Part shown: positions 27,792 through 44,674 of the stretch, piece by piece | How the letters are laid out: each line of letters begins with the position of its first letter | Numbering within the stretch: position 1 is the stretch's first letter | Source: an uncultured Chloroflexia bacterium | GTDB lineage: Bacteria; Chloroflexota; Anaerolineae; JAAYZQ01 | Direction of reading: 5' to 3' | DNA length: 64,000 bases | NCBI GenBank assembly: GCA_963700285.1 | Contig: CAVOXA010000007.1 | Coordinates: 32,001 to 96,000, forward strand | Notes under the pieces: generated by a model | Database searches by the model: none | What the model was told of the DNA's origin: nothing | What the model saw: the letters and a program-made list of their open reading frames with translations, nothing else | Translations under genes and position numbers: made by a program

Positions 27792-28583
27792 ATCGTGGCC
27801 AAGCGACTGCCAACACCCTTGCCAAGCAACTGCAACCATCGCCCAGAACGGTACTGCGAGGGGTCGTTCGTGGACACTGTGCACATGAACCATCCAGCAA
27901 TAACCTCGTTCCTACGGTCAGCCGCCGCGCCGATTCTGGCCAATGGGCGAACTGAATCGGCTTGCGCCCTTGACAGGCCGTCCATCCTCGTGAGTACTGC
28001 AGGTGGACGTACAGCGACAGGGAGTGCATGGGGCACTTTGTAATGGCCCAATGGGTGAGGCGGTGTCAAGGTGAGAGGTCATCGCCGAGGGACAATCCCC
28101 CAAGGAGATGGAAATCGTTCTTCTTGCGTTTGACGGAGCGTTCGGCACAGGAGCGGGCGTCTTTGTGGAGGTTCCAGAGGACGCTATTAGGATCGTGGCC
28201 AAGCGACTGCCAACACCCTTGCCAAGCAACTGCAGCATCGCCCAGAACGGCACTGCGAGGGGTCGTTCGTGGACACTGTGCACATGAACCATCCAGCAAT
28301 AACCTCGTTCCTACGGTCGGCCGCCGCGCCGATTCTGGCCAATGGGCGAACTGAATCGGCTTGCGCCCTTGACAGGCCGTCCATCCTCGTGATACTGCAG
28401 GTGGACGTACAGCGACAGGGAGTGCATGGGGCACTTTGTAATGGCCCAATGGGTGAGGCGGTGTCAAGGTGAGAGGTCATCGCCGAGGGACAATCCCCCA
28501 AGGAGATGGAAATCGTTCTTCTTGCGTTTGACGGAGCGTTCGGCACAGGAGCGGGCGTCTTTGTGGAGGTTCCAGAGGACGCT
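27792..28583. repeat. Near-identical ~394-bp tandem duplication of a transposase 3' end
   Basis: 27792-28185 and 28192-28583 differ by only a few substitutions and indels. Confidence 0.9.
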
Positions 28584-28910: not shown

Positions 28911-29009
28911 CCAGGGCATCGAGGTAGTGCGTTTGCCAGAAATCCCCTGATGGTCATTTCTGATCTAGGGCACGTATGTGCCACATCCCAATGGTGAGAG
29001 GTGGAAGTC

Positions 29010-30070
29010 ATGAAGAGAGCATCCCTGATTCTGGTACTAAGTCTGCTCATGGTCCTGGCAGCGGTGCCTGTCGCTGCCCAAGACGCCAGTCCGGTGTGTG
29101 AGAAGGTCCGGTCAGCGCAGGACAGGATGGAATGGAACAGCCAGCCCTGGGTGAGCCTGCTCGAAGTGCAAGGTCGTGAAGGGTGTTGGCTGGGCGATAT
29201 TGATCTACAAGGTGCCAACCTGGAAGGCGTCAAGCTGCGCGGGGCCCACCTGATCGACGCCGACCTGACCGACGCCGACCTGACCGGCGCCAACCTTAGC
29301 GGTGCCAACCTGACCCGCGCCGACCTGACCGGCGCCGACCTGACCGGCGCCGACCTGTCCTTCGCCAGGCTGTACGGGGCCATACTTGGCGGCGCCGACC
29401 TGACCAACGCCAATCTGACCTGGGCCAACCTGAGGCAGGCCGAGCTGATGTGGGCCAACCTAGAAGGCGCCAACCTGTCCCACGCCTATCTGCGCAACGC
29501 CGACCTGAGGTTTGCCAACCTGACCTACGCCGACCTGACCAGCGCTGACCTTGTTCTCACCCAACTGATGGTGGCCAACCTGAGCAACGCCGTCCTGACC
29601 GGCGCCAACCTGACCGGCGCCGACCTGAGGTCTGCCAACCTGACCAACGCCAACCTGGAGTACGCCGACCTGCTCGGCGCCGACCTGCATTACGCCATCC
29701 TGACCGGCGCCGACCTGTCCTTCGCCAGGCTGTACGGGGCCATACTGGCGGCGCCGACCTGACCAACGCCATCCTGACCGGCGCCAACCTGACCGGCGCC
29801 AACCTGGGGTACGCCGACCTGACCGGCGCCAACCTGACCGGCGCCAACCTGAGGTACGCCGACCTGACCGGCGCCAACCTGACCGGCGCCGACCTGCTCG
29901 GCGCCGACCTGCGCGGCGCCCACCTGACCAACGCCAACCTGACCAACGCCAACCTGGAGTGGGCCGACCTGCGCGGCGCCGACCTTGACAACGCTAACCT
30001 GACCGGCGCCCGACCCTGGACACGCCAACCTGAAGCCAGCGTTATCTGGAACAACACGATTGCCCTGACG
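29010..30070 (+). pseudogene. Secreted pentapeptide-repeat protein, paralogue of 18844..19899, frameshifted near 29747 and noisy at the 3' end
   Basis: N-terminus nearly identical to the paralogue; catactggcg vs the earlier repeat catacttggcg (missing T); remnant C-cap atctggaacaacacgattgccctgacg. Confidence 0.8.
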
Positions 30071-32960: not shown

Positions 32961-33935
32961 GTGGAATTACGGTGGAGCCTGAAGAATAGCATGAAACTGC
33001 AGACAAAGCTTCGCCTGGGCCTGATCGCCCTCCTTGCCCTGCTCGCTGCCCCAATAGCCGCCATTGGCTGCAATTATCTGGGTAAGAGGGCTTCGGGCGA
33101 GGTCGTCATCCTGTCCCTCGGAGTCATCCTGGGAAGCGCAGCAGGTGTCCTCCTGATCTCCCGTTCTGTACTGCAAGCGATGCAGTGCAGACAGCACGAC
33201 CTGGAGGCTCTAAACAACGAACTGTGGGCCACTAACCGCAACTACATGGAGATGCTGGGTTTCGTGGCCCATGAACTCAAGAACCCACTGGCCTCAGCCG
33301 TGATCAGCCTCTACACCGTCAAGGACGGCTACCTGGGAGAGATCACGCCCGGACAGAAGAAAAGCCTGGAGTCGGTAGCTCGCAACCTGGAAGATTTCCA
33401 GGACATGATCCGCAACTACCTGGACCTGTCCCGTCTGGAGAAAGGGGAACTTGCCGTAGCCAAGACCTACTTTCCCCTGCAAACCCGCGTGATCCGGCCG
33501 GTACTGGAAGAGCTGGAAGGCGAACTGCAAAGGCGGCAGATGAGGGTAGAGAATCACATTCCAGAGGGCAGGGTGGTGTATGCCGACGCCAGCCTGCTCA
33601 AGATCGTCTACTGTAATCTGTTGTCAAACGCTGTCAAGTATGGCCTGGAAGCGGGGACAATCCTGCTCGAGTCGCAAGACGGTGACAGCACCCTGATGTT
33701 CAGCGTGCGGAACGACAGTGCCGGTATTCCACAGGACCAGATCCCGCTGCTCTTCCGAAAGTTCAGCCGGTTGTTCAATCCCGAATACGAAGGCAAGCGG
33801 GGCACCGGCCTGGGCTTGTACATTTGCCGGGACATCGTGGAAAAGCATGGAGGCACGATTTGGGTAGATTCTCAGATGGGACAGTGGGTGCAATTCAGTT
33901 TCACCCTGCCAAAGCAGGACGAGGCACAAACGTGA
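32961..33935 (+). CDS. Membrane sensor histidine kinase
   Basis: Two TM helices; AHELKNPL H-box; NLLSNAVKY; GTGLGL; start may be 32991. Confidence 0.9.
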   Translation: MELRWSLKNSMKLQTKLRLGLIALLALLAAPIAAIGCNYLGKRASGEVVILSLGVILGSAAGVLLISRSVLQAMQCRQHDLEALNNELWATNRNYMEMLGFVAHELKNPLASAVISLYTVKDGYLGEITPGQKKSLESVARNLEDFQDMIRNYLDLSRLEKGELAVAKTYFPLQTRVIRPVLEELEGELQRRQMRVENHIPEGRVVYADASLLKIVYCNLLSNAVKYGLEAGTILLESQDGDSTLMFSVRNDSAGIPQDQIPLLFRKFSRLFNPEYEGKRGTGLGLYICRDIVEKHGGTIWVDSQMGQWVQFSFTLPKQDEAQT

Positions 33936-33948
33936 GAGAGGTGGATCG

Positions 33949-34743
33949 ATGAGCGAAAAGAGACAGATTCTGGTAATTGACGACGACGCCCAGTTGGTGG
34001 CTGGGGTCAAGACTCTGTTGGAAAGTGTCGGCTACCAGGTCTACTGCGCCTACCGGCCCAAAGATGGGTTGGCGCTGGCCAGGGAGACGCGGCCGGATCT
34101 GATCGTCATGGACATCCTGTTCGCGGGACCGCCGGGGCCAGACGGTGTGGCAGTCTCGCGGCAGCTTGCCCAGGACCCCGAGCTGAAAGATACGCCGGTG
34201 ATCATCCTGTCTGGGGTGAAGAAGGTGCTGGACATGCCGGTAAAGCTCGGCCCGGATGAGACCTACATGCCGGTGCAAGCGTTTGTGGAAAAGCCCTTCA
34301 AGCCAGAGGAGTTGCTGTCAAAGATCCAGCAAGTGCTGGCCCTTCGAGAATCGGTGAAGGAGGAAGGAAAGGGAAGAATCCTGGTTGTCGACGACGATCC
34401 GGACTTTCTGGCGATCACCACCCGCATTCTGACTGCCGCCGGCTACGAACCTGTGACCGCGGCCAACGGAGCGCAAGCTATGGCTGCCATGCGGCGGCGA
34501 AAGCCGGACCTGGTGTTGCTGGATATCATGATGAGCACCGTGCTGGATGGGCTGGGTGTCAGCGAGGACATGCAAGCCGATGAAGAACTGAAGGATCTAC
34601 CTGTCATCATGGTGTCCTCTATCGCGGAAACAGAGTATGCCGCGGTCTTTCCCACGGATGGCTATGTCCACATGGATGCCTGGATCTCGAAACCGGTCCG
34701 GCCCGATGAACTGCTGCAAAAGATCAGCAGATGTCTGGGATAG
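33949..34743 (+). CDS. Response regulator with two receiver domains and no output domain
   Basis: ILVIDDD..PDLIVMD..KPF and ILVVDDD..PDLVLLDIMM..KPV. Confidence 0.9.
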   Translation: MSEKRQILVIDDDAQLVAGVKTLLESVGYQVYCAYRPKDGLALARETRPDLIVMDILFAGPPGPDGVAVSRQLAQDPELKDTPVIILSGVKKVLDMPVKLGPDETYMPVQAFVEKPFKPEELLSKIQQVLALRESVKEEGKGRILVVDDDPDFLAITTRILTAAGYEPVTAANGAQAMAAMRRRKPDLVLLDIMMSTVLDGLGVSEDMQADEELKDLPVIMVSSIAETEYAAVFPTDGYVHMDAWISKPVRPDELLQKISRCLG

Positions 34744-34791: not shown

Positions 34792-35367
34792 ATGAACCAT
34801 GACCGAGTTGATCTGACCGGGCCGGCACTCGAGCGCGACTTTGTGGCTACGCTGAGCCCGGCAGGGGAGACCCTACGTACATGCATGCAGTGTGGCTCGT
34901 GCACGGCCACCTGCGCCAGCGCCTACGCCATGGACTATACGCCCAGACAGATCTGGCACATGGCCCGGCTGGGCATGAAAGACGAGGTGCTCAACAGCAA
35001 GACGTTGTGGCTGTGCAGCACCTGCTACTCCTGTACGCTGCGCTGTCCCCGCGATCTGCCTCTGACCGAGACCATCGGCACTCTGAAGCGAATGGCGGAG
35101 CGGGAGGGCATCCGGGGCTATAAGGAGAGCCGCTACTTCTACCGGGCCTTCATGGAAACGGTGCGGCGCTACGGGCGCACCAACGAAGTGGAGATCATGG
35201 TCCGCTACTTTCTGACCACGAACCCGTTTCTGGCCGTCGAGTACGTGCCATTGGCGCTGGCCATGCTCCGTCACAGCAAGGTGCCCCTCAGCCTGCCCAA
35301 GGTCGCCGGCCCGGGCAAGCTGGACCGGCTGTTCGCCCGGGTCGAGGAATTGGAGGGTGAGCGATGA
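34792..35367 (+). CDS. hdrC: Heterodisulfide reductase subunit C
   Basis: CMQCGSCTATC and LWLCSTCYSCTLRCPR; precedes hdrB. Confidence 0.9.
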   Translation: MNHDRVDLTGPALERDFVATLSPAGETLRTCMQCGSCTATCASAYAMDYTPRQIWHMARLGMKDEVLNSKTLWLCSTCYSCTLRCPRDLPLTETIGTLKRMAEREGIRGYKESRYFYRAFMETVRRYGRTNEVEIMVRYFLTTNPFLAVEYVPLALAMLRHSKVPLSLPKVAGPGKLDRLFARVEELEGER

Positions 35368-36224
35368 AGGAATACGCCTACTTTCCCGGCTGCTCCCTGG
35401 AGAGCACGGCCAAGGAGTATGACCTCTCCGCCCGGCTGGTGATGCGCGAGCTGGGAGTGGAGCTGTTAGAACTTGAGGATTGGAACTGCTGTGGAGCCAG
35501 CGCCGCCGAGATCAGGAGCCACCTGCTCGCCTTGGTGCTGCCTGCTCGCAACCTGGCTCTGGCCGAACAGATGAACGGCAACGGTCAGCTTGTAGCCAGT
35601 TGCAGCGCCTGCTATGTCAATTTGCGCAAGGTGGAGGAGACGGCCAGGGCGAACGCAGCCATGCTGGGCACCATCAACCAGGCGCTGGAGGTGGATGGTC
35701 TGACCTACGCCGGCAGGATGCATGTGCGTCACCTGCTGGACGTCATCGCCAACGATGTAGGCCCGGAGGCCATCGCCGCGCGGGTGAGGAGGCCGCTGCA
35801 GGGACTGCGCGCGGCGCCCTACTATGGCTGCCAGACGGTCCGTCCCTACAGCCCCTTCGACGTCCCCTATTTCCCCGAGACGATGGACAGGGTGCTGGCC
35901 GCCATGGGCGTGCAGGTTCACCCCAACCCCCTGAAAGCGGCTTGCTGTGGGGGCACCCTATCGACCACCAAACGCGAGGTAGGGCTCAAGCTGGTGAGTG
36001 ACCTGTTCCGCGCCGTGGAAGGGGCGGACTGTATTGTCACCGTCTGTCCCCTGTGCCAGATGAACCTGGAGTCGTACCAGGGGCAGGTGTCGAAACAGCT
36101 CGACCAGCCGCTAAACATGCCGGTCGTGTACCTGACCCAGCTCTTGGGGCTGGCCTTTGGCTTGCCGGAGCAGGAGTTGGGGCTAAAGCACAACATCGTG
36201 CCCCTCAAGCTGACGGAGGTTTGA
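35364..36224 (+). CDS. hdrB: Heterodisulfide reductase subunit B
   Basis: YFPGCSL, DWNCCG, CSAC, PYYGCQ, CCGG, CPLCQMNL (two CCG domains). Confidence 0.93.
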   Translation: MKEYAYFPGCSLESTAKEYDLSARLVMRELGVELLELEDWNCCGASAAEIRSHLLALVLPARNLALAEQMNGNGQLVASCSACYVNLRKVEETARANAAMLGTINQALEVDGLTYAGRMHVRHLLDVIANDVGPEAIAARVRRPLQGLRAAPYYGCQTVRPYSPFDVPYFPETMDRVLAAMGVQVHPNPLKAACCGGTLSTTKREVGLKLVSDLFRAVEGADCIVTVCPLCQMNLESYQGQVSKQLDQPLNMPVVYLTQLLGLAFGLPEQELGLKHNIVPLKLTEV

Positions 36225-36226
36225 GC

Positions 36227-37072
36227 ATGGATGACATCAAGATCGGAGTCTACATCTGCCAGTGTGGAGTGAATATCGCCAGCGTGGTGGACGTGGCCGA
36301 CGTGGCCCGCTTTGCCAGTGGGTTGCCCCACGTGGCGGTTGCCCGAGACAGCAAATACACCTGTGCCGAGCCAGGACAAAAGATGATCAGACAGGACATC
36401 CAGGAGTTGGGCATCAACCGCGTGGTCGTGGCCTCGTGCACACCGCGGATGCACGAACTCACGTTTCAGGGTGTGCTGGAGGAAGCGGGTCTGAACCCCT
36501 ACTTCTTTGAGATGGCCAACATTCGCGAGCACGTTGCCTGGATCAGCAAGGACACAGCCAAGGCCACGGCCAAGGCCAAGCGCCTGGTCAGTGCCGCAGT
36601 GGCCCGCGTGGCTCTGCAGCAGCCGCTCCAGGCCCGGCGCGTGCCGGTCGCCGACAAAACGCTGGTGGTCGGGGGCGGCATTGCCGGCATTCAGGCCGCG
36701 CTGACCATCGCCAACGCTGGCTACCACGTCTACTTGGTGGAGCGAGAGCCGGCCATCGGCGGCTACATGGCCCAACTGGACAAAACCTTCCCCACCCTGG
36801 ACTGTGCCACCTGAATTCTGGGCCCCAAGATGATGGATGCCGGTCGGCATCCCAACATTGAGCTCTTGACCTGGAGTGAGGTGGAGGAGGTTTCCGGCTA
36901 CGTGGGCAATTTCAAGGTGCGGGTCCGCAAGAAGGCCCGCTACGTGGACGAGAGCAAGTGCACCGGCTGCGGCGTGTGCTGGACCGAGTGCCTGACGCGG
37001 CGCATCCCGCAGTTCAAGCAGATTGAGAAAGGTGCGTTGCGCTTTGGGGAGAGGAGGCCAGGCGAGCGATGA
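36227..37072 (+). CDS. hdrA: HdrA N-terminal half, probable selenoprotein (in-frame TGA 36812-36814)
   Basis: IGVYICQCG, VVASCTPR, MANIREH, VVGGGIAG, QLDKTFPTLDCAT*ILGPKM; frame continues to GNFKVRVRKKARYVD..CTGCGVC; SECIS-like hairpin downstream of the TGA. Confidence 0.9.
36835..36852 (+). promoter_or_regulatory. Bacterial SECIS-like hairpin
   Basis: ggatgcc-ggtc-ggcatcc, G-containing apical loop starting 28 nt after the UGA. Confidence 0.75.
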
Positions 37073-37548
37073 ACGCGCAGCGTGTGGACGAGATCATCGA
37101 CAACTATGAGGCCGACCGGACCTGTACCCTGGCCATCCTGCAGGACGTGCAAGCTGAATACAAGTACCTGCCCCGCGAGGCTATCATCCAGACGGCCAAC
37201 CGGCTGGGCGTCACGCTGGGCGAGGTCTACCAGATGGCGACCTTCTTCCGGGCCTTTAGCCTGGAGCCCAAGGGCGACTATACCATCAGGGTGTGCATGG
37301 GCACAGCTTGCCACGTACGCGGCGCGGTCCAGATCCTGGAGCAGTTCGAGCGCGATCTGGGCATCAGGGCTGGCGAGACGTCACGCGACCGCAGGTTCTC
37401 TCTGGAAGTGGTCATGTGCTTGGGCGCCTGCGCCCTCGGCCCGGTGGTGGTCGTCAACGAGGAAACGCACGGCGAGATGTCGCCCGACAAGGCGCACGCG
37501 CTCGTGGCCGAGTTGACGGATGGGGGCGACGGGAGGGAAGGGTCATGA
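37069..37548 (+). CDS. NuoE/HydC-like [2Fe-2S] subunit
   Basis: [33 protein letters not shown]. Confidence 0.92.
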
Positions 37549-39326
37549 GCGAAACAAGGACCATAACTGTCTGTCAGGGGACCGGTTGCGAGTCGCACCG
37601 CTCCGGGCAGCTGCGGATGATGCTGGAGGCGGAGGTGGCCCGGTTGGATCTGCCGTGCCAGGTTAAACGTACTGGCTGTCATGGCTTGTGCGAGCGTGGC
37701 CCCATCGTCACGGTGGAGCCAGATGGCATCCTCTACCTCAAAGTGCAGCCCAAGGATGTGCCCGACATCGCCAAGTCGCTGGAGAACGGCGACCTGGTGA
37801 AACGGCTGCTGTACCGCGACCCGGTGACCAAAAAGCCGGTGCCCTACTACAAGGACGTGGACTTTTACAGCAAGCAGACGCGGCTGGTGCTGCGCCACAA
37901 CGGGCATATCGACCCTGAGTCGATCGATGATTATGTGGCTGTGGGCGGCTACCAGGCGCTGCGCAAGGCCCTGCAGGAGATGACGCCACAGCAGGTCGTC
38001 GCCGAGGTCAGGGATTCCGGCCTCAGGGGGCGGGGCGGGGCCGGGTTCGTCACCGGACTGAAGTGGGAGTTCACCCGCAAGGCCCCCGGCGAGATCAAGT
38101 ACATCATCGCCAACGGCGACGAGGGCGACCCCGGCGCTTTCATGGATCGCAGCATCATGGAGGGAAACCCCCACAGTGTCATCGAGGGGATGCTCATCGG
38201 CGCCTACGCGGTGGGTGCTCAGGAAGGTTATATCTATGTCCGCAACGAGTACCCGATGGCTGTCCAACGCCTGCGCCTGGCCATCGAGAAGGCGCAGGAG
38301 CGTGGCCTTCTGGGCGAAAACATCCTGGGCTCTGGTTTTGCCTTTTCCGTCAAAATCGTGCGCGGGGCAGGGGCCTTTGTCTGCGGCGAGTCGAGCGCGC
38401 TGATGGCCTCGGTGGAAGGCCGCGTCGGCGAGCCGCGCCCCAAGCACGTCCACGCCACCCACAAGGGCCTGTGGGACCAGCCCACGGCGTTGAACAACGT
38501 CGAGACCTGGGCCAACGTGCCGGCGATCATTGACCGCGGCTCCGACTGGTACGCGAGCTATGGCACCGCCCGCAGCAAGGGCACCAAGGTCTTTTCGCTG
38601 GTGGGTAAGATCAAAAACACCGGCCTCATCGAGGTGCCGATGGGCACGCCGCTGCGCGAGATCATCTATGACGTCGGCGGCGGCCTCCTCAAGGATCGGG
38701 CGTTCAAAGCGGTGCAAACCGGCGGGCCATCGGGCGGCTGCCTTCCGGCCGGCCTGCTGGATCTGCCGGTGGACTTTGAGCGGTTGGCCGACGCCGGTTC
38801 GATGATGGGTTCCGGCGGCATGATCGTCATGGACGAGCGCAATTGCATGGTCGATGTGGCCCGGTACTTTGTGGATTTTCTCAAGGAGGAGTCGTGCGGC
38901 AAGTGCACGGCCTGCCGCGAGGGCATCAAACAGATGCTCGAGATCCTGACCGCCATCACCAAGGGTGAGGGACAGGAAGGGGACGTCGAGCTGTTGGAGG
39001 AGTTGGGTGCGGTCGTGCAGCAGACCTCGCTGTGCGGACTGGGCAAGTCGGCGCCCAACCCGGTCCTGTCTACCATCCGCTACTTCCGGGATGAGTACGA
39101 TGCCCACATTCGCGAGCAGCGGTGCCCGGCCGGTGTCTGCCGGGCGCTGATCACCTTTGCCATCGACCCTGACCTGTGCAAGGGCTGCACGATCTGCGCC
39201 CAGAAGTGCCCGCAGGAAGCGATCTCCGGCGAGCTAAAGCAGATCCACGTTATCGACGATGCCAAGTGCATCCGCTGTGGAGTCTGCCGCGAAGTCTGCC
39301 CGTCGGATGCGGTGCTGGTGCACTGA
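37545..39326 (+). CDS. NuoF/HydB-like FMN/NADH-binding subunit with N-terminal [2Fe-2S] and C-terminal 2x[4Fe-4S]
   Basis: CQGTGC..GCHGLC; [10 protein letters not shown]; [13 protein letters not shown]; [12 protein letters not shown]; [12 protein letters not shown]; two CxxCxxCxxxCP. Confidence 0.93.
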
Positions 39327-39341
39327 TGCGGAGGAAAGAAC

Positions 39342-41138
39342 ATGATCAACTTGACGATAGACGGCCAACCTTTCAAAGCTGACGAAGGGCAGACTATCCT
39401 GGAGGTCGCCCGGCGGGCAGGCGTCAAGATCCCGACGCTGTGCTACCATCCCGCCCTGGAGCCCTATGGCGCCTGCCGCCTGTGCACGGTCGAGATCCGC
39501 TGGGGCCGGCGCTCATCGTTGGAAACGGCCTGTACCTATCCCGTGCGCGAGGGGATTGAGGTGCTGACCAAGTCCGAGGCCGTACGGGCGACAAGGCGCA
39601 TGATCCTGGAGCTGATGCTAGCCCGCTGTCCCAATGTGCCGGTGATCCAGGACCTGGCCCGCGAGTATGGCATCGAGAAATCCCGCTTCAAGACCGAGGA
39701 CCCGGACGAGGACTGCATCCTGTGCGGCCTGTGCGTGCGGGTCTGCAACGAGCTGGTGGGTGCAGGGGCCATCAACTTTTCGGAGCGAGGCATCAGCCGC
39801 GTCATTGGCCCGCCATTCCTGGAGACGAGCGACGCCTGCATCGGCTGTGGGGCGTGCGCCCTGGTCTGTCCGACCGGCGCAATCCGCATCCTGGACGAGG
39901 CGGCAGCCATCTACGAGGCGCTGCCGCTGGGGCCAACCTCGGCCATCCACGTGCCATCGCTGCAGGCGGTACCACGGGTGCCGGTCATCGACACCGATGC
40001 CTGCATCCACTTCCGCACGAGGGATCTGGGTATGGTCGATGGCTGTGGGGTGTGCCAGACGCTCTGCGAGGTGGAGGCCATCAATTTTGACGTGGAAGAC
40101 GAGTTCCTGGATCTGGAGGTGGGCGCCATCATTCTGGCCACCGGCTTTGCTAACTTTGATCCCGGCAAACTCGACCAGTATGCCTACGGTCGCTCGCCCA
40201 ATGTCATCAGCGGCATCGAGTTTGAGCGGATGTCCAACTCGGCCGGGCCGACGGGCGGCGAGATCCTGACCGCCGACGGCAAGCGGCCGGAGCGGGTGGC
40301 CATCATCCACTGCGTGGGCAGCCGCGACAAGGCCGGCGCGGCCGCCGGAAACAGCAACGAGTACTGCTCGCGTGTATGCTGTATGTACGCCTTGAAACAG
40401 GCCCACCTGGTGCGTGACAAGACCGACGCCGAGGTATTCGAGTTCTACATGGACATGCGTACTTTTGGCAAGGGCTACGAAGAGTTCTACGAGCGCATCC
40501 AGGAGGAGGGCGTGATCTTTGTTCGAGGCCGGGGCACGGAGGTCATGGTCGAGAAGGATGGCCGGCTGACCGTCAAAGCCGAGGACACCAACCTGGGGCA
40601 GCCTGTATCGGCCACTGTGGACATGGTCATCCTGGGTGCGGGCATCGTACCCCAGGCCGATACCGCCGACGTGGCCCAGACCTTTGGCATCAGCCGCAGC
40701 CCCGATGGCTTTTTCATGGAGGCCCACCCCAAGCTGCGGCCCTTCCACACCAACACCGATGGTGTGTTCCTGGCCGGTGCTTGTCAGGCCCCGCGCGATA
40801 TACCCGACACGGTGGCTCACGCCAATGCCGCGGCCGCGGAGGCCCTGGCCCTGATGTCCGCTGGCGAGGTGACCATTGCCCCGACGACCGCCTGGGTCGA
40901 CGAGAACCTATGCTCAGGCTGCAAGACCTGCCTGGATCTGTGTCCCTACAAGGCCATTTCGTACATCTCTCGAAACGGTACCGGCGTGGCCGAGGTGAAT
41001 GAGGCACTGTGCAAGGGCTGTGGCACCTGTGCCGCTGCCTGCCCGGCTGGGGCTATCACTGCCCAGCACTTTACGGGTGCCCAGATCCTGGCCCAGATCG
41101 AGGGGCTGTTCCGGGTAGGACAAGGAGTGACGATATGA
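39342..41138 (+). CDS. Fusion: HydA/NuoG-like N-terminal Fe-S module + HdrA C-terminal half
   Basis: IPTLCYH..GACRLC..TAC; CILCGLCVRVC; CIGCGACALVCP; then QAVP, VGAIILATG, IHCVGSRD, YCSRVCCMY, EAHPKLRP, GACQAPRDI and C-terminal ferredoxin. Confidence 0.92.
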   Translation: MINLTIDGQPFKADEGQTILEVARRAGVKIPTLCYHPALEPYGACRLCTVEIRWGRRSSLETACTYPVREGIEVLTKSEAVRATRRMILELMLARCPNVPVIQDLAREYGIEKSRFKTEDPDEDCILCGLCVRVCNELVGAGAINFSERGISRVIGPPFLETSDACIGCGACALVCPTGAIRILDEAAAIYEALPLGPTSAIHVPSLQAVPRVPVIDTDACIHFRTRDLGMVDGCGVCQTLCEVEAINFDVEDEFLDLEVGAIILATGFANFDPGKLDQYAYGRSPNVISGIEFERMSNSAGPTGGEILTADGKRPERVAIIHCVGSRDKAGAAAGNSNEYCSRVCCMYALKQAHLVRDKTDAEVFEFYMDMRTFGKGYEEFYERIQEEGVIFVRGRGTEVMVEKDGRLTVKAEDTNLGQPVSATVDMVILGAGIVPQADTADVAQTFGISRSPDGFFMEAHPKLRPFHTNTDGVFLAGACQAPRDIPDTVAHANAAAAEALALMSAGEVTIAPTTAWVDENLCSGCKTCLDLCPYKAISYISRNGTGVAEVNEALCKGCGTCAAACPAGAITAQHFTGAQILAQIEGLFRVGQGVTI

Positions 41139-41575
41139 TCGACAACGGCTTCGAACCAAGAATCGTCGGGTTCCTATGCAACTGGTGCACGTACGCGGCC
41201 TCCGATGGGGCGGGCGTAGCCCGCATGCAGCAGCCGCTGAACGTGGACATTATCCGGGTGATGTGCTCTGGCCGGATCGAGCCCGCTTTTATCCTGAAGG
41301 CCTTTGCCGAGGGGGCCGACGGCGTCATCGTCTCGGGCTGCCATCCGCCGGGCGACTGTCACTACACCGACGGCAACTACAAGACCTTCCGCCGCATGCC
41401 GCTGGTCGAGGCGTTGCTGGCGCAGTCTGGCATCGAGCCCGGCCGCTTTCACTGGGGCTGGATCTCGGGGGCGGAGGCGCCCAAGTGGGCCGGGCTGGTG
41501 CGTGATTTCACCGCGCAGGTGCGCGCCTTGGGGCCGCTGAATTGGCAGCACGAGCTGGCGAGCAAGGAGGACTAG
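41135..41575 (+). CDS. mvhD: MvhD/FlpD [2Fe-2S] subunit
   Basis: GFLCNWCTY, RVMCSGR, GCHPPGDCHY, WISGAE. Confidence 0.93.
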   Translation: MIDNGFEPRIVGFLCNWCTYAASDGAGVARMQQPLNVDIIRVMCSGRIEPAFILKAFAEGADGVIVSGCHPPGDCHYTDGNYKTFRRMPLVEALLAQSGIEPGRFHWGWISGAEAPKWAGLVRDFTAQVRALGPLNWQHELASKED

Positions 41576-41577
41576 CC

Positions 41578-42552
41578 ATGACCACCAACGGAAAGCTGAA
41601 GCTGGGTCTCTACTGGGCAGCCTCGTGTGGCGGTTGCGACATCGCCATCGTCGAGCTCCGGGAAAAGATCCTGGATCTGGACGCAGCGGCCGATATCCTG
41701 TTCTGGCCGTGCGCCATGGATTTCAAATACAAGGACGTCAGGGCCATGGTCGAGGGGCAGATGGACGTCTGCCTGTTCAATGGCTCCATCCGCAGCACCG
41801 AGAACGAAGAGATGGCACACCTGCTCCGGGAGAAAGCCAAGGTTTTGGTCGCCTTTGGCTCCTGCGCCCACGAGGGTTGCATTCCCGGGCTGGCCAATCT
41901 CTTTGACCGGCAGTCGATCTTGGCGCGAGTCTACCTGGAGACACCCTCGACCGAGAACCCGCAGGGCATTTTGCCGCAGACGAGCTACCGGATGCCCGAG
42001 GGCGAGGTGCACATCCCCAAGTTGTTTACTACGGTCAAGACGCTGGACCAGGTGACAGAGGTGGATTACTATGTGCCCGGCTGCCCACCGCAAGCGCCGC
42101 AGATCTGGGCCGTACTCGAGGCGATCCTGGGGGGCAACCTGCCGCCCAAGGGCAGCGTGGTGGGCGCCACTGAAAAGACGGTTTGCGACGAGTGCAAACA
42201 CGTCCGCGAGGAGAAGCGCATCACCCGCTTCTACCGGCCCCACGAGATCATTCCCGACCCGGAGCGCTGCTTGCTTGACCAGGGCATCATCTGCGCCGGG
42301 CCGGCAACGCGGGGCGGCTGCGGGGCGCTCTGTCCCACGGTAAACATGCCCTGCCGGGGTTGCTACGGCCCGCCGCCAAACATCGTTGACCAGGGCGCGG
42401 CATTGCTCTCGGCTGTGTCTTCGGTGGTGGCCGCCGACACGGAGGAGGAAGCAGCCCGCATCGTGGGGCAGATTGTGGACCCGGTGGGGACGTTTTACCG
42501 CTTTGGGCTGCCGGCATCGCTGCTCCACCGTGCAAAGCTTGTGGATTCGTAG
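41578..42552 (+). CDS. mvhG: [NiFe]-hydrogenase small subunit (group 3c, MvhG-like)
   Basis: WAASCGGCD, FGSCA, PGCPP, GPATRGGCGALCP..PCRGCYG. Confidence 0.92.
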   Translation: MTTNGKLKLGLYWAASCGGCDIAIVELREKILDLDAAADILFWPCAMDFKYKDVRAMVEGQMDVCLFNGSIRSTENEEMAHLLREKAKVLVAFGSCAHEGCIPGLANLFDRQSILARVYLETPSTENPQGILPQTSYRMPEGEVHIPKLFTTVKTLDQVTEVDYYVPGCPPQAPQIWAVLEAILGGNLPPKGSVVGATEKTVCDECKHVREEKRITRFYRPHEIIPDPERCLLDQGIICAGPATRGGCGALCPTVNMPCRGCYGPPPNIVDQGAALLSAVSSVVAADTEEEAARIVGQIVDPVGTFYRFGLPASLLHRAKLVDS

Positions 42553-42613
42553 ATCTGGAGAACCGGCTGGATGAATCTCGGATCACGAATCTACCTACCC
42601 GCAGGAGGATACT

Positions 42614-44086
42614 ATGCAAAAGATTAGCATTGACCCGATCACCCGCCTGGAGGGGCACGGCAAGATCGACATCTTTCTCGACGAGGAAGGCAACGTGGCC
42701 AACGCCTACCTGATCATCCCCGAGCTTCGCGGCTTTGAGAAATTCGCCGAGGGCCGGCCAGTAGAAGAGATGCCGCGTATCACACCGCGCATCTGTGGCG
42801 TCTGCCCCGAGGCGCACCACATGGCCTCGGCCAAGGCTTGCGACGCCGTCTACCACGTCGAGGTGCCGCCGGCGGGCAAAAAGCTGCGCGAGCTGCTTTA
42901 CTCGGCCTTCTACGTGGCCGACCACACCGTCCACTTTTACATCTTGGCCGCGCCCGATTTTGTGCTGGGGCCAGACGCCCCACCTGCCGAGCGCAACATC
43001 CTGGGCTTGATCCACAAGGTCGGCGTGGACGTCGGCAAGCAGGTTATCGAGAGCCGCGGAAAGGCCATGGACATCATCGGTCTGTTGGGCGGCAAGACTA
43101 TCCATCCTGTGGGCGCGCTGCCCGGCGGGGTGAGCAAATCGATCAACGAGGAGGAGCGGGCCGGGATCGAGAGCTGGGGCCACGATTTGGTGGGCTTTGG
43201 ACTGTTCAGCCTCCAACTCTTCAGGGATGTGGTGCTGGGCAACAAGGCCTATCTGGACCTGATCCTGTCCGACGCTTACACGACGCCGATGTATTATATG
43301 GGTCTGGTGGACGGGGACAACAAGGTCAACTTTTACGATGGGAAGGTGCGCGTCGTGGACCCTGAGGGCAAAGAACTGGTCAAGTATGGCCCAGAGGAGT
43401 ACCTGGAGGTCGTCGCCGAGCACGTCGAGCCTTGGACCTATCTCAAGTTCCCCTACCTCAAGCAGGTAGGCTGGAAGGGGTTTGTCACCGGCAAGGACAG
43501 CGGGGTCTACCAGGCGACGCCCCTGTCGCGGCTCAATGCCGCCGATGGCATGGCCACGCCCGAAGCCCAGGCGGCCTACGAAGAGTTCTACACGACGATG
43601 GGCGGCAAGCCGGTCCACGGCACGCTGGCCACCCACTGGGCGCGCCTCATCGAGCTGCTCTACGCCGCCGAGCGCCTGGTCGAACTGGCCACCGATCCTG
43701 GCATCACCGACCCGCACGTGCGCAACATCCCCACCGCCATACCGACCGAGGGCGTGGGCATCGTCGAAGCGCCGCGCGGCACGCTGACGCACCACTTTGT
43801 CACCGACGAGCGGGGCATTGTCCAGAAATGCAACCTCATTGTCGGCACGACCAACAACTATGCGCCCATCTCCATCTCGATCAAGAAAGCGGCCGAGGCC
43901 TTTATCCACAAGGGCCAGGTCCTGACCGAGGGCATGCTGAACCGGGTGGAGATGGCCTTCCGCGCCTACGACCCCTGTTTCGGTTGCGCCACCCACACGC
44001 TGCCGGGCCAGATGCCGCTGGAGGTGCGGGTGTGCGACGCGGAGGGGTGCGTGGTCGAGGTGCTATGTCAGCATCTGGGCAAGTAG
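42614..44086 (+). CDS. mvhA: [NiFe]-hydrogenase large subunit (group 3c, MvhA-like)
   Basis: [16 protein letters not shown] (L1), [17 protein letters not shown] (L2) plus C-terminal extension. Confidence 0.94.
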
Positions 44087-44143
44087 GGTGACGGGGGATT
44101 GGGAGATCCAGATCTCCCGATCCCCCAGATAGGTGAGTTCCCC

Positions 44144-44674
44144 ATGAAGAAGCTGGTCCTCGGCCTGGGAAATCCAATCCTGACGGATGACGGCGCCGGC
44201 ATCCACGTGGTGCGGGCTGCGGCCGCCCGCTGCGCGCCGGCGGACGGCGCGACCTTTGCCGAGGCGAGCCTGGGTGGCCTGCGGCTCCTGGATTTGCTGG
44301 CCGGCTACGACCGGGCCATCGTGGTGGATGCAATCCAGACGCGCGGCGGGCAGCCAGGCGCCCTCTACCGGCTGGGCCCCGGCGACCTGCGAGCCTCCCT
44401 GCACTCCGGCTCCAGCCACGACCTGTCGCTGCCGGCCGCCCTGGACCTGGGCCGGCGGCTGGGCATGGCGCTGCCCGGCGAGGAAAACCTGATCCTCCTT
44501 GCCATTGAGGTCGAGGATGTGCTGACCTTTGGCGAGACCTGTACCCCCGCCGTGACGGGGGCCATCCCCCAGGCTGTGGAGGCGGTACTGGCGGAACTGG
44601 CGGTTCAGCCGTGGGCCGCTGAGGTGCGGCCGGACTGGCAATGTTTCCCGCGGGCAGGGCATAACTCGACATAA
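44144..44674 (+). CDS. Hydrogenase maturation protease
   Basis: VLGLGNPILTDDGAG, VVDA, SSHD. Confidence 0.92.
   Translation: MKKLVLGLGNPILTDDGAGIHVVRAAAARCAPADGATFAEASLGGLRLLDLLAGYDRAIVVDAIQTRGGQPGALYRLGPGDLRASLHSGSSHDLSLPAALDLGRRLGMALPGEENLILLAIEVEDVLTFGETCTPAVTGAIPQAVEAVLAELAVQPWAAEVRPDWQCFPRAGHNST

Follow-up and report, generated by a model that had tools for sequence, protein, structure and literature searches.

The stretch of DNA analysed (hereafter the window) comprises 64,000 nucleotides (nt) of contig CAVOXA010000007.1 (positions 32,001 to 96,000) from an uncultured Chloroflexia bacterium, whose genome (G000) is 89% complete. It contains an operon of ten genes, all called on the + strand, in the order hdrC-hdrB-hdrA(N)-bfuC-bfuB-bfuA::hdrA(C)-mvhD-mvhG-mvhA-protease, so that hdrA is divided in two by the three genes of a Bfu-type nicotinamide adenine dinucleotide (NAD(H)) module. 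Four of the nine junctions are overlaps of 4 nt and the others are gaps of 2, 15, 2, 61 and 57 nt. Gene identities were assigned with Pfam and NCBIfam, and together with the open reading frames (ORFs) these calls bear out the gene order, coordinates and overlapping or tight spacing given in a preliminary description of the locus. Scanning the operon for promoters and terminators gave no signal above chance. The genes and features are as follows.

34792-35367, + strand: hdrC, 191 amino acids (aa), two [4Fe-4S] motifs with 8 Cys; TIGR03290 scores 88 bits against a cut-off of 160.
35364-36224, + strand: hdrB, 286 aa, two CCG domains with five Cys each; TIGR03288 scores 165 bits against a cut-off of 345.
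36227-37072, + strand: hdrA N-piece, 281 aa with a putative selenocysteine (Sec196); N-terminal cluster domain, GxGxxG strand for flavin adenine dinucleotide (FAD) and ferredoxin motif 1.
36812-36814, + strand: in-frame TGA of hdrA(N), probably read as selenocysteine, where methanogen HdrA has Cys197/Sec197.
36835-36852, + strand: hairpin resembling a selenocysteine insertion sequence (SECIS), 7-bp stem and 4-nt loop beginning with G.
36959-36991, + strand: ferredoxin motif 1 (C245, C248, C251, C255), the last conserved element of the N-piece.
37069-37548, + strand: bfuC (HydC/NuoE-like), 159 aa, PF01257, [2Fe-2S] ligands C76, C81, C117 and C121.
37545-39326, + strand: bfuB (HydB-like), 593 aa, site for flavin mononucleotide (FMN) and NAD, ligands for clusters B1-B5.
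39342-41138, + strand: bfuA::hdrA(C) fusion, Pfam/NCBIfam matches Fer2_4 + Fer4 + HdrA.
39342-39872, + strand: BfuA module of the fusion, residues 1-177, [2Fe-2S] cluster A1 and two [4Fe-4S] clusters, without the His-ligated A3 motif.
39930-41138, + strand: HdrA C-half, residues 197-598 of the fusion, with ferredoxin motif 2, FAD domain and C-terminal 2x[4Fe-4S].
41135-41575, + strand: mvhD, 146 aa, [2Fe-2S] adaptor.
41578-42552, + strand: mvhG, 324 aa, hydrogenase small subunit.
42614-44086, + strand: mvhA, 490 aa, [NiFe] large subunit with RICGVC and DPCFGCATH motifs and a C-terminal extension.
44144-44674, + strand: hydrogenase maturation protease, TIGR00072 above cut-off.

The HdrB and HdrC of the window thus differ from those of methanogens in scoring under the cut-offs of the methanogen families, and to our knowledge no role for coenzyme M or coenzyme B is to be expected in Anaerolineae. 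For MvhA, MvhG and MvhD the best NCBIfam matches are VhuA, VhuG and VhuD, each under its exception cut-off. The Ni-binding motifs of MvhA, together with MvhG and MvhD, are all present and adjoin hdrA, and we take MvhAG to be a group 3c [NiFe]-hydrogenase.

When the two pieces of HdrA were aligned to the methanogen protein, the N-piece covered residues 1-257 of 5ODC_A with its stop 26 residues past the sequence CTGCGVCWTEC, while the fusion starts with BfuA (residues 2-187 match WorA, 9MQX_A) and continues with HdrA from the loop before QAVP and ferredoxin motif 2 to the C-terminus. Together the halves align to the whole of methanogen HdrA, and the break falls between the two Cys motifs of the inserted ferredoxin. 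This agrees with the preliminary description, in which HdrA(N) ended after the first Cys cluster of that ferredoxin and HdrA resumed at its second half behind a HydA-like module. The break could be placed about five residues past the fourth Cys of motif 1, as the L015-type and L063 fusions keep the HdrA loop up to it.

The elements on both sides of the break are highly conserved. All four Cys of ferredoxin motif 1 are retained in 47 of 47 N-pieces, and among 125 aligned fusions motif 2 (C221, C235, C238, C242) is invariant, as are E295, K352 and the cluster Cys 324/342/346/347 of the FAD domain. The Glu and Lys presumably correspond to E356 and K409 of 5ODC. The Cys of the C-terminal 2x[4Fe-4S] ferredoxin are kept in 122 of the 125 fusions and gone from three shorter forms, and the distance from the last Cys of BfuA to QAVP is 31 residues in 107 fusions, 37-40 in 5 and unmatched in 13. 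The N-terminal cluster domain, the Cys197/Sec position and the inserted and C-terminal ferredoxins that characterise HdrA are accordingly all found, spread over two genes. In the preprint on class II benzoyl-CoA reductase (BCRII; bioRxiv 10.64898/2026.04.10.717634) the passages on the HdrA-type flavin site describe the Lys as contacting flavin N5.

In a 2x[4Fe-4S] ferredoxin each cluster is held by three Cys of one motif and one of the other; since each cluster draws Cys from both motifs, both clusters would here be shared between chains. We infer that the two HdrA pieces rejoin, completing the FAD domain as well as a 2x[4Fe-4S] ferredoxin of two chains, with motif 1 from the N-piece and motif 2 from the fusion, which if true would be an unusual structural feature. 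An AlphaFold2 model of the fusion alone (125 rows) gave a mean pLDDT, the predicted local distance difference test, of 76.8 and a predicted template modelling score (pTM) of 0.45, with BfuA and the FAD domain confident and residues 188-214, the half-ferredoxin loop, under pLDDT 50. The low values of this loop are as expected if the partner chain is missing from the model. Foldseek matched the model to HdrA chains and to WorA, with a root-mean-square deviation of 1.5 A over 182 columns to 9MQX_A.

The in-frame TGA of hdrA(N) means that the N-piece is one protein only if this codon is read as selenocysteine. It lies between DKTFPTLDCAT and ILGPK and aligns with Cys197 of 5ODC_A, the position at which HdrA of M. 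maripaludis has Sec197 (passage in PMC13518236), and many relatives have Cys instead of the TGA. The hairpin begins 20 nt after the TGA. Of 16 distinct related TGA sites among those listed, 14 share its stem, with a two-sided base change in L012, L013 and L047, whereas both sites from Desulfobacterota take another fold. The genome encodes selA, selB and tRNA-Sec. Because the TGA at the Sec197 position, the hairpin and these genes occur together, the product of hdrA(N) would be a single 281-aa selenoprotein. The preliminary description had recognised the N-piece correctly while overlooking the TGA. Matches to HdrA of 460 aa were considered as a second type of split and rejected, being intact Sec-HdrA.

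The inserted genes had been described as a HydBC-type NAD module, and both the ligands and the structural matches support this. BfuB matches 9MQX_B (822 bits) and 7T2R_B (811 bits) best, against 400 bits for Nqo1 of complex I. It contains the ligand sets C10/15/45/49, C451/454/457/497 and C545-C585, an FMN site and, as mapped via the alignment to 7T2R_B, the B2 ligands C434/T472/H521/C527/C532. The four residues C434, H521, C527 and C532 are kept in 52 of 52 BfuB from split loci, 48 of which also have the B3/B4 Cys fully aligned. We take the motifs AFM, GAGAF and GGPSG to be markers of bifurcating HydB; all are present here and were given no weight, as 21 of 52 relatives have Tyr at position 199. 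BfuA has 12 Cys invariant across the 125 fusions, forming clusters A1, A2 and A4 with no A3 motif. By sequence the module thus comprises BfuB with B1-B5, BfuC with the [2Fe-2S] cluster C1 and BfuA with A1/A2/A4, as in the Bfu family, and the signatures of bifurcation are intact in both the HdrA and the Bfu module. The sections of PMC9304861 on cluster B2 describe its His/Cys site for bifurcating BfuB and as missing from non-bifurcating homologues, and BfuA without A3 is described as belonging to type 1 Bfu forms which feed through A4 and have catalytic domains after BfuA (passages in PMC9304861 and PMC12318220). In the fusion this place behind BfuA is occupied by the HdrA half.

Two loci (L159:6432-9596 and L160:5033-8197) encode a BfuB of 1055 aa in which the C-terminal 2x[4Fe-4S] is gone and a GltD/NfnB-like FAD/NAD(P) domain (PF14691 + PF07992) is present; this domain would give the complex a third flavin site.

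To follow the arrangement in other genomes a search with a profile of the junction was performed, scoring 5-14 candidates per genome; the counts include the centre genomes, and closely related genomes are not independent. The full-length fusion was found in 22 of 301 Anaerolineae genomes, 4 of 401 evenly sampled Chloroflexota genomes, 7 of 301 Desulfobacterota genomes (the phylum of G042) and 12 of 151 Thermoplasmatota genomes (the phylum of G041). No fusion was found in 251 genomes from the phylum of the Clostridia genome G043 or in 151 genomes from the class of the Bathyarchaeota genome G044, with 8-14 candidates scored per genome in both cases. The family is easily missed, as annotation pipelines label its pieces hdrA fragments and nuoEFG, yet it occurs in 7-8% of the sampled Anaerolineae and Thermoplasmatota.

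Apart from the window 54 loci were mapped, in 50 genomes from three phyla; a further match at a contig start (G1376) was left out. The absence from other genomes that would have spoken against the preliminary description is hence not borne out. The same gene order recurs in other genomes at 69-91% identity (e.g. L012), and at least 120 proteins among the matches listed align with 99-100% of the junction region, their identity being 64-92%; the arrangement is no assembly artefact. In 47 of the 54 loci an N-piece lies directly before bfuC, 6 are cut by contig ends and one (L154) is without it. N-piece and BfuC make up one in-frame fusion in 17 of those 47 loci, which without exception belong to Desulfobacterota or Thermoplasmatota; there the cassette is joined covalently to HdrA on either side.

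The genes that follow the split core differ between loci. Of the 54, 13 have the window form with mvhD-mvhG, 3 have mvhD-fdh, 4 have mvhD together with flx-like genes and 3 are single-FAD forms with the partner out of view, while in 9 a short C-half precedes hdrD-hdrA(-etf), 20 run into a further HdrA unit and 2 are cut. The donor arm beside the same split core is accordingly not fixed and can be Mvh, Fdh, Flx or MetVF. Of the earlier interpretation the architecture, the breakpoint, its conservation and the intact signatures are supported. An unsplit sister operon in the same family (L024) has near-identical mvh genes (MvhG 77%, MvhA 80%).

Several of these variants show further features. In L152:5353-13502 (minus strand) a split double-unit HdrA with Bfu is followed by mvhD, metV and metF, with Bfu occupying the place of the NADH module of Hdr-MvhD-MetVF. 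In a second form from the same family (L015-L023, L191 and L192) both HdrA pieces are short, with neither the N-terminal cluster domain nor the C-terminal ferredoxin, and hdrD, an intact hdrA and often etfBA are found downstream; these short-form loci resemble the first BamE unit, with ETF as a possible high-potential partner. Several loci (e.g. L156:11429-14035, L158:5480-8671) have DRTGG, CBS/HATPase and PHP genes within the Bfu cassette or immediately ahead of it, in L156 between bfuB and the bfuA fusion. An in-frame GltD/NfnB domain (PF14691 + PF07992) was seen within the HdrA chain of L045, L048 and L071 and is not in the window fusion.

In a tree of 155 rows the split of HdrA requires at least six changes on starred branches, and one clade of split HdrA was rejected by the approximately unbiased (AU) test (p-AU 2e-8) for a chosen subset of 56 rows (24 split, 27 intact and 5 HdrL). 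Nor do BfuB and BfuA of the split loci form one clade, at least three changes being needed (52 split, 29 other). A single origin of the split is thus not supported by the trees of HdrA and Bfu or by the AU test, and the sequences would fit either several origins or exchange of the cassette by recombination. L034 falls among split rows in the 155-row tree but not in the 56-row tree, and the idea of a secondary loss there was dropped.

The operon can be compared with several known systems. Methanogen HdrABC-MvhAGD (also Hdr-Vhu-Fwd and Elp-Hdr; 5ODC, 8RVU) has the same six subunit types, the FAD Lys/Glu, Cys197/Sec197 and the MvhD arm, but its HdrA is one chain whose ferredoxin is free for ferredoxin or polyferredoxin, whereas that of the window is split and fused to BfuA. 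WorABCSL (9MQX) and NiFe-BfuABCSL (7T2R) have the same BfuBC core, and the BfuA of the window is of A1/A2/A4 type like WorA, but their third-substrate side is a catalytic subunit while in the window it would be the exit of a second bifurcating flavin. HdrL (PMC2702500) and the HdrA-NfnB proteins HdrA9-11 of ANME-1 archaea (PMC9012536) also have, in the passages concerned, an NAD(P)H module which interrupts the inserted ferredoxin, and two possible bifurcation sites are suggested there for the ANME-1 proteins (PMC9012536). The HdrL-type insert is, however, an unrelated single chain of ~500 aa placed after the QAVP...IDK strand, compared with a three-gene Bfu cassette ~five residues past motif 1 in the window.

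A parallel in concept is BCRII, Bam[(BC)2DEFGHI]2, which in the preprint passages on its structure likewise has HdrA-type and Bfu-type modules in series and a BfuA without A3. There BamGHI supplies the input side by way of BamF and the C-terminal ferredoxin of a double-unit BamE, and electrons leave for BamC/BamB through the inserted ferredoxin; in the window Bfu is fused at the inserted ferredoxin, the hydrogenase is on the MvhD side, HdrA is split and single-FAD, MvhD is of normal length and no AOR-type tungsten subunit is found among the Pfam matches of the operon. That the window represents the Bam layout of sulfate reducers was considered and rejected, a split BamE being absent from the BCRII accounts in the parts concerned and the split-locus neighbours scanned with Pfam being without a tungsten subunit (no search aimed at bamB was made). 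Feeding of HdrA by Bfu in Bam-Bfu was proposed by Schut et al. (PMC9304861, in part), and two modules for flavin-based electron bifurcation in one complex were, in the words of its authors, unreported before the solved BCRII structure (bioRxiv 10.64898/2026.04.10.717634).

The excerpts of PMC9304861 that list Bfu functions include no Hdr-Mvh-linked type, those of PMC4046663 place nuoEFG beside hdrA-mvhD in D. phosphitoxidans with no split, and those of PMC5736913, PMC7325909, PMC5109826, PMC12142623 and PMC11201294 contain no split layout. No published description of hdrA split around bfuCBA was found, with an earlier mention possible in reviews of HdrA or the supplementary tables of PMC9304861. 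Novelty, on which the preliminary description was cautious, thus seems to apply to the split layout and less to the concept of double bifurcation, for which Bam-Bfu and ANME-1 are precedents. The window thus has a genuine and conserved arrangement, apparently undescribed, in which two bifurcating modules of known kinds would be wired the other way round from BCRII; if this wiring is true, the complex mirrors the one two-module complex solved so far.

The operon products likely assemble into one hydrogenase complex with two bifurcation steps in series. As for the course of the electrons, we lean on balance towards a cascade in which H2 would feed HdrA, the high-potential electron would go to HdrCB and the low-potential one to BfuA, to be split between NAD+ and ferredoxin (Fd), a reading based on sequence. 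H2 would be oxidised at MvhAG and MvhD would carry the electrons to the FAD of HdrA, from which one electron would pass by HdrC to a disulfide or carrier at HdrB. The other would pass through the two-chain ferredoxin to A4, the cluster of the fused BfuA that serves Bfu as mid-potential port, and the incoming flow would be divided by BfuBC between NAD+ and ferredoxin. The net reaction would be 4 H2 + 2 RSSR + NAD+ + 2 Fd(ox) -> 4 RSH + NADH + 2 Fd(red). HdrA would in this way act as a booster raising weak donors to the ~-400 mV needed by Bfu, and the reaction should be reversible.

Position and fusion suggest that Bfu is connected to the low-potential exit, because the break sits between the Cys motifs of the exit ferredoxin and the C-half is fused to the third-substrate end of BfuA. 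The inserted ferredoxin is given as the electron exit of methanogen Hdr complexes in passages of PMC12350162, PMC9012536 and PMC13518236 and as that of BamE in the BCRII preprint (bioRxiv 10.64898/2026.04.10.717634), and its placing on the low-potential path by the preliminary description is thereby upheld.

Calculated with potentials from PMC9304861 and with HdrB at -140 mV, the cascade reaches equilibrium at ~1-2 Pa H2, the corresponding values being 67 Pa for Hdr-Mvh alone and 1.5e4-7e4 Pa for NiFe-Bfu alone. If true, and assuming -140 mV, the H2 threshold would be ~30- to 70-fold under that of Hdr-Mvh and four orders of magnitude under that of NiFe-Bfu, and a layout conserved in bacteria and archaea would enable cells to form NADH and reduced ferredoxin with H2 in trace amounts. 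Sediments typically have a few Pa of H2, at which anaerobes need a supply of reduced ferredoxin and NADH. The genome contains an acetyl-CoA synthase gene and hypF, which makes a demand for NADH and reduced ferredoxin plausible. More broadly, and tentatively, two unrelated bifurcating sites may have been hard-wired in cascade through gene insertion, in a split core that serves as a general booster, arose more than once and is combined in bacteria and archaea with H2, formate, NADH or methyl-tetrahydrofolate arms, giving sediment microbes NADH and reduced ferredoxin at ~1 Pa H2. As H2, NAD+ and ferredoxin are easily assayed, coupled bifurcation could be tested more simply with this complex than with BCRII.

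A number of observations weigh against the cascade. With HdrB at -290 mV, an illustrative value, the equilibrium shifts to 300-700 Pa H2, and on the acceptor side the DsrC-family gene of the genome has one C-terminal Cys and no dsrA match was found at the given completeness of 89%. In L154 the fusion occurs without bfuC or an N-piece within the 20 kb analysed, and L159 and L160 have a BfuB without the ferredoxin-binding C-terminal clusters, so that not every member can reduce ferredoxin at BfuB. Genes of the Flx-like, NADH-oxidising kind also adjoin the split core (in 4 of 23 single-FAD loci and in four others), as does metVF (L152); in such settings a return of electrons from NADH to NAD+ would seem circular in part, and Bfu may instead be the input, as it is in the only solved complex of HdrA and Bfu according to the structural passages of bioRxiv 10.64898/2026.04.10.717634.

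An alternative is a reversed direction of the same complex and wiring, towards production of H2 (or formate) as a fermenter or syntroph would need, where Bfu would merge electrons from NADH and reduced ferredoxin, HdrA would add those of a thiol or carrier at HdrB and protons would be reduced at MvhA. Both modules are described in part of PMC9304861 and the BCRII preprint as reversible or confurcating, Bfu is the confurcating input in BCRII (bioRxiv 10.64898/2026.04.10.717634), and versions linked to Flx, metVF and hdrD/etf do occur. Against this the direction is feasible only under ~1-2 Pa H2 with HdrB at -140 mV and the acetyl-CoA synthase gene fits H2 uptake, though that pathway is reversible; we regard the reversed direction as unlikely, but deserving of serious weight. 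Slightly less probable again is that only one site bifurcates, with Bfu as a plain NAD(H) port on HdrA, a counterpart in several genes to the NfnB/GltD insert of HdrL, or HdrA as a plain wire between hydrogenase and Bfu. Proteins of HdrL type have an NAD(P)H module of one chain within this linker between the motifs (passages in PMC9012536 and PMC2702500), entering ~30 residues further on in L045, L048 and L071, and L159 and L160 lack B3/B4 in BfuB. In the sections of bioRxiv 10.64898/2026.04.10.717634 on activity, BamGHI was 68% reduced by NADH alone and short circuits in BCRII prevented coupled turnover from being measured. The window BfuB nevertheless has all the clusters that non-bifurcating homologues lack, and the alignment of the B3/B4 Cys across nearly all split loci together with the intact Lys352 of HdrA and both CCG sites of HdrB speaks against this reading.

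That the fusion is a mere tether seems improbable. BfuA would then meet the HdrA chain elsewhere, at the C-terminal ferredoxin or MvhD, or the Cys motifs would pair in swapped fashion, leaving Bfu and the hydrogenase as alternative inputs. The route taken in BCRII by electrons leaving BamI, which pass to BamF and the C-terminal ferredoxin of BamE (bioRxiv 10.64898/2026.04.10.717634, in part), would fit this, as would the second BfuA motif, which aligns by sequence with motif 1 of HdrA, and the ~20-residue linker of low confidence in the AlphaFold2 model. On the other side the model shows BfuA as a complete WorA-like fold in which its two motifs pair with each other, the junction is unchanged in nine loci whose C-half has no C-terminal ferredoxin, and the covalent link goes to the inserted ferredoxin and not to the input arm. 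Least credible by far is a broken hdrA or a misassembly joining two operons; hdrA does have two stops under table 11, but the arrangement is conserved in the 50 other genomes from three phyla with invariant ligands, and the first stop is followed by a SECIS-like hairpin and corresponds to Cys in many relatives.

For the acceptor at HdrB in the cascade favoured above, lipoyl-GcvH is a candidate. The genome has two GcvH genes, one of them just upstream of another bfuCBA cluster (G000:C1:62096-69900), and the ORFs before it have N-termini which by eye resemble the hdrD-like proteins of L024. In L024 itself (L024:5553-9008) a GcvH (lipoyl carrier) gene lies amid hdrD-like genes, just upstream of the unsplit hdrA-mvh operon.

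No intact rnfC above cut-off was found in the 89%-complete genome, and rnfC-like fragments at G000:C1:864255-865580 lie in several short frames with one stop, representing a broken gene or sequencing errors. Several further hdrA clusters are found on C10, C15 and C22, of which C10:1001876-1006848 and C15:240049-245213 score almost identically with every query and seem to be duplicates. In the window itself a histidine kinase and a double response-regulator gene (32961-34743) immediately precede hdrC at a distance of 48 nt, and response-regulator genes are likewise located upstream in L012 and L024. Further upstream a near-perfect tandem duplication of ~400 bp with single-base offsets (27792-28583), whose ORF pieces have no Pfam match, may be a mobile-element remnant or an assembly error. 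A gene for a pentapeptide-repeat protein with a signal-like N-terminus lies at 29001-30030, where 15-nt repeats run beyond the stop in another frame, suggesting a frameshift.

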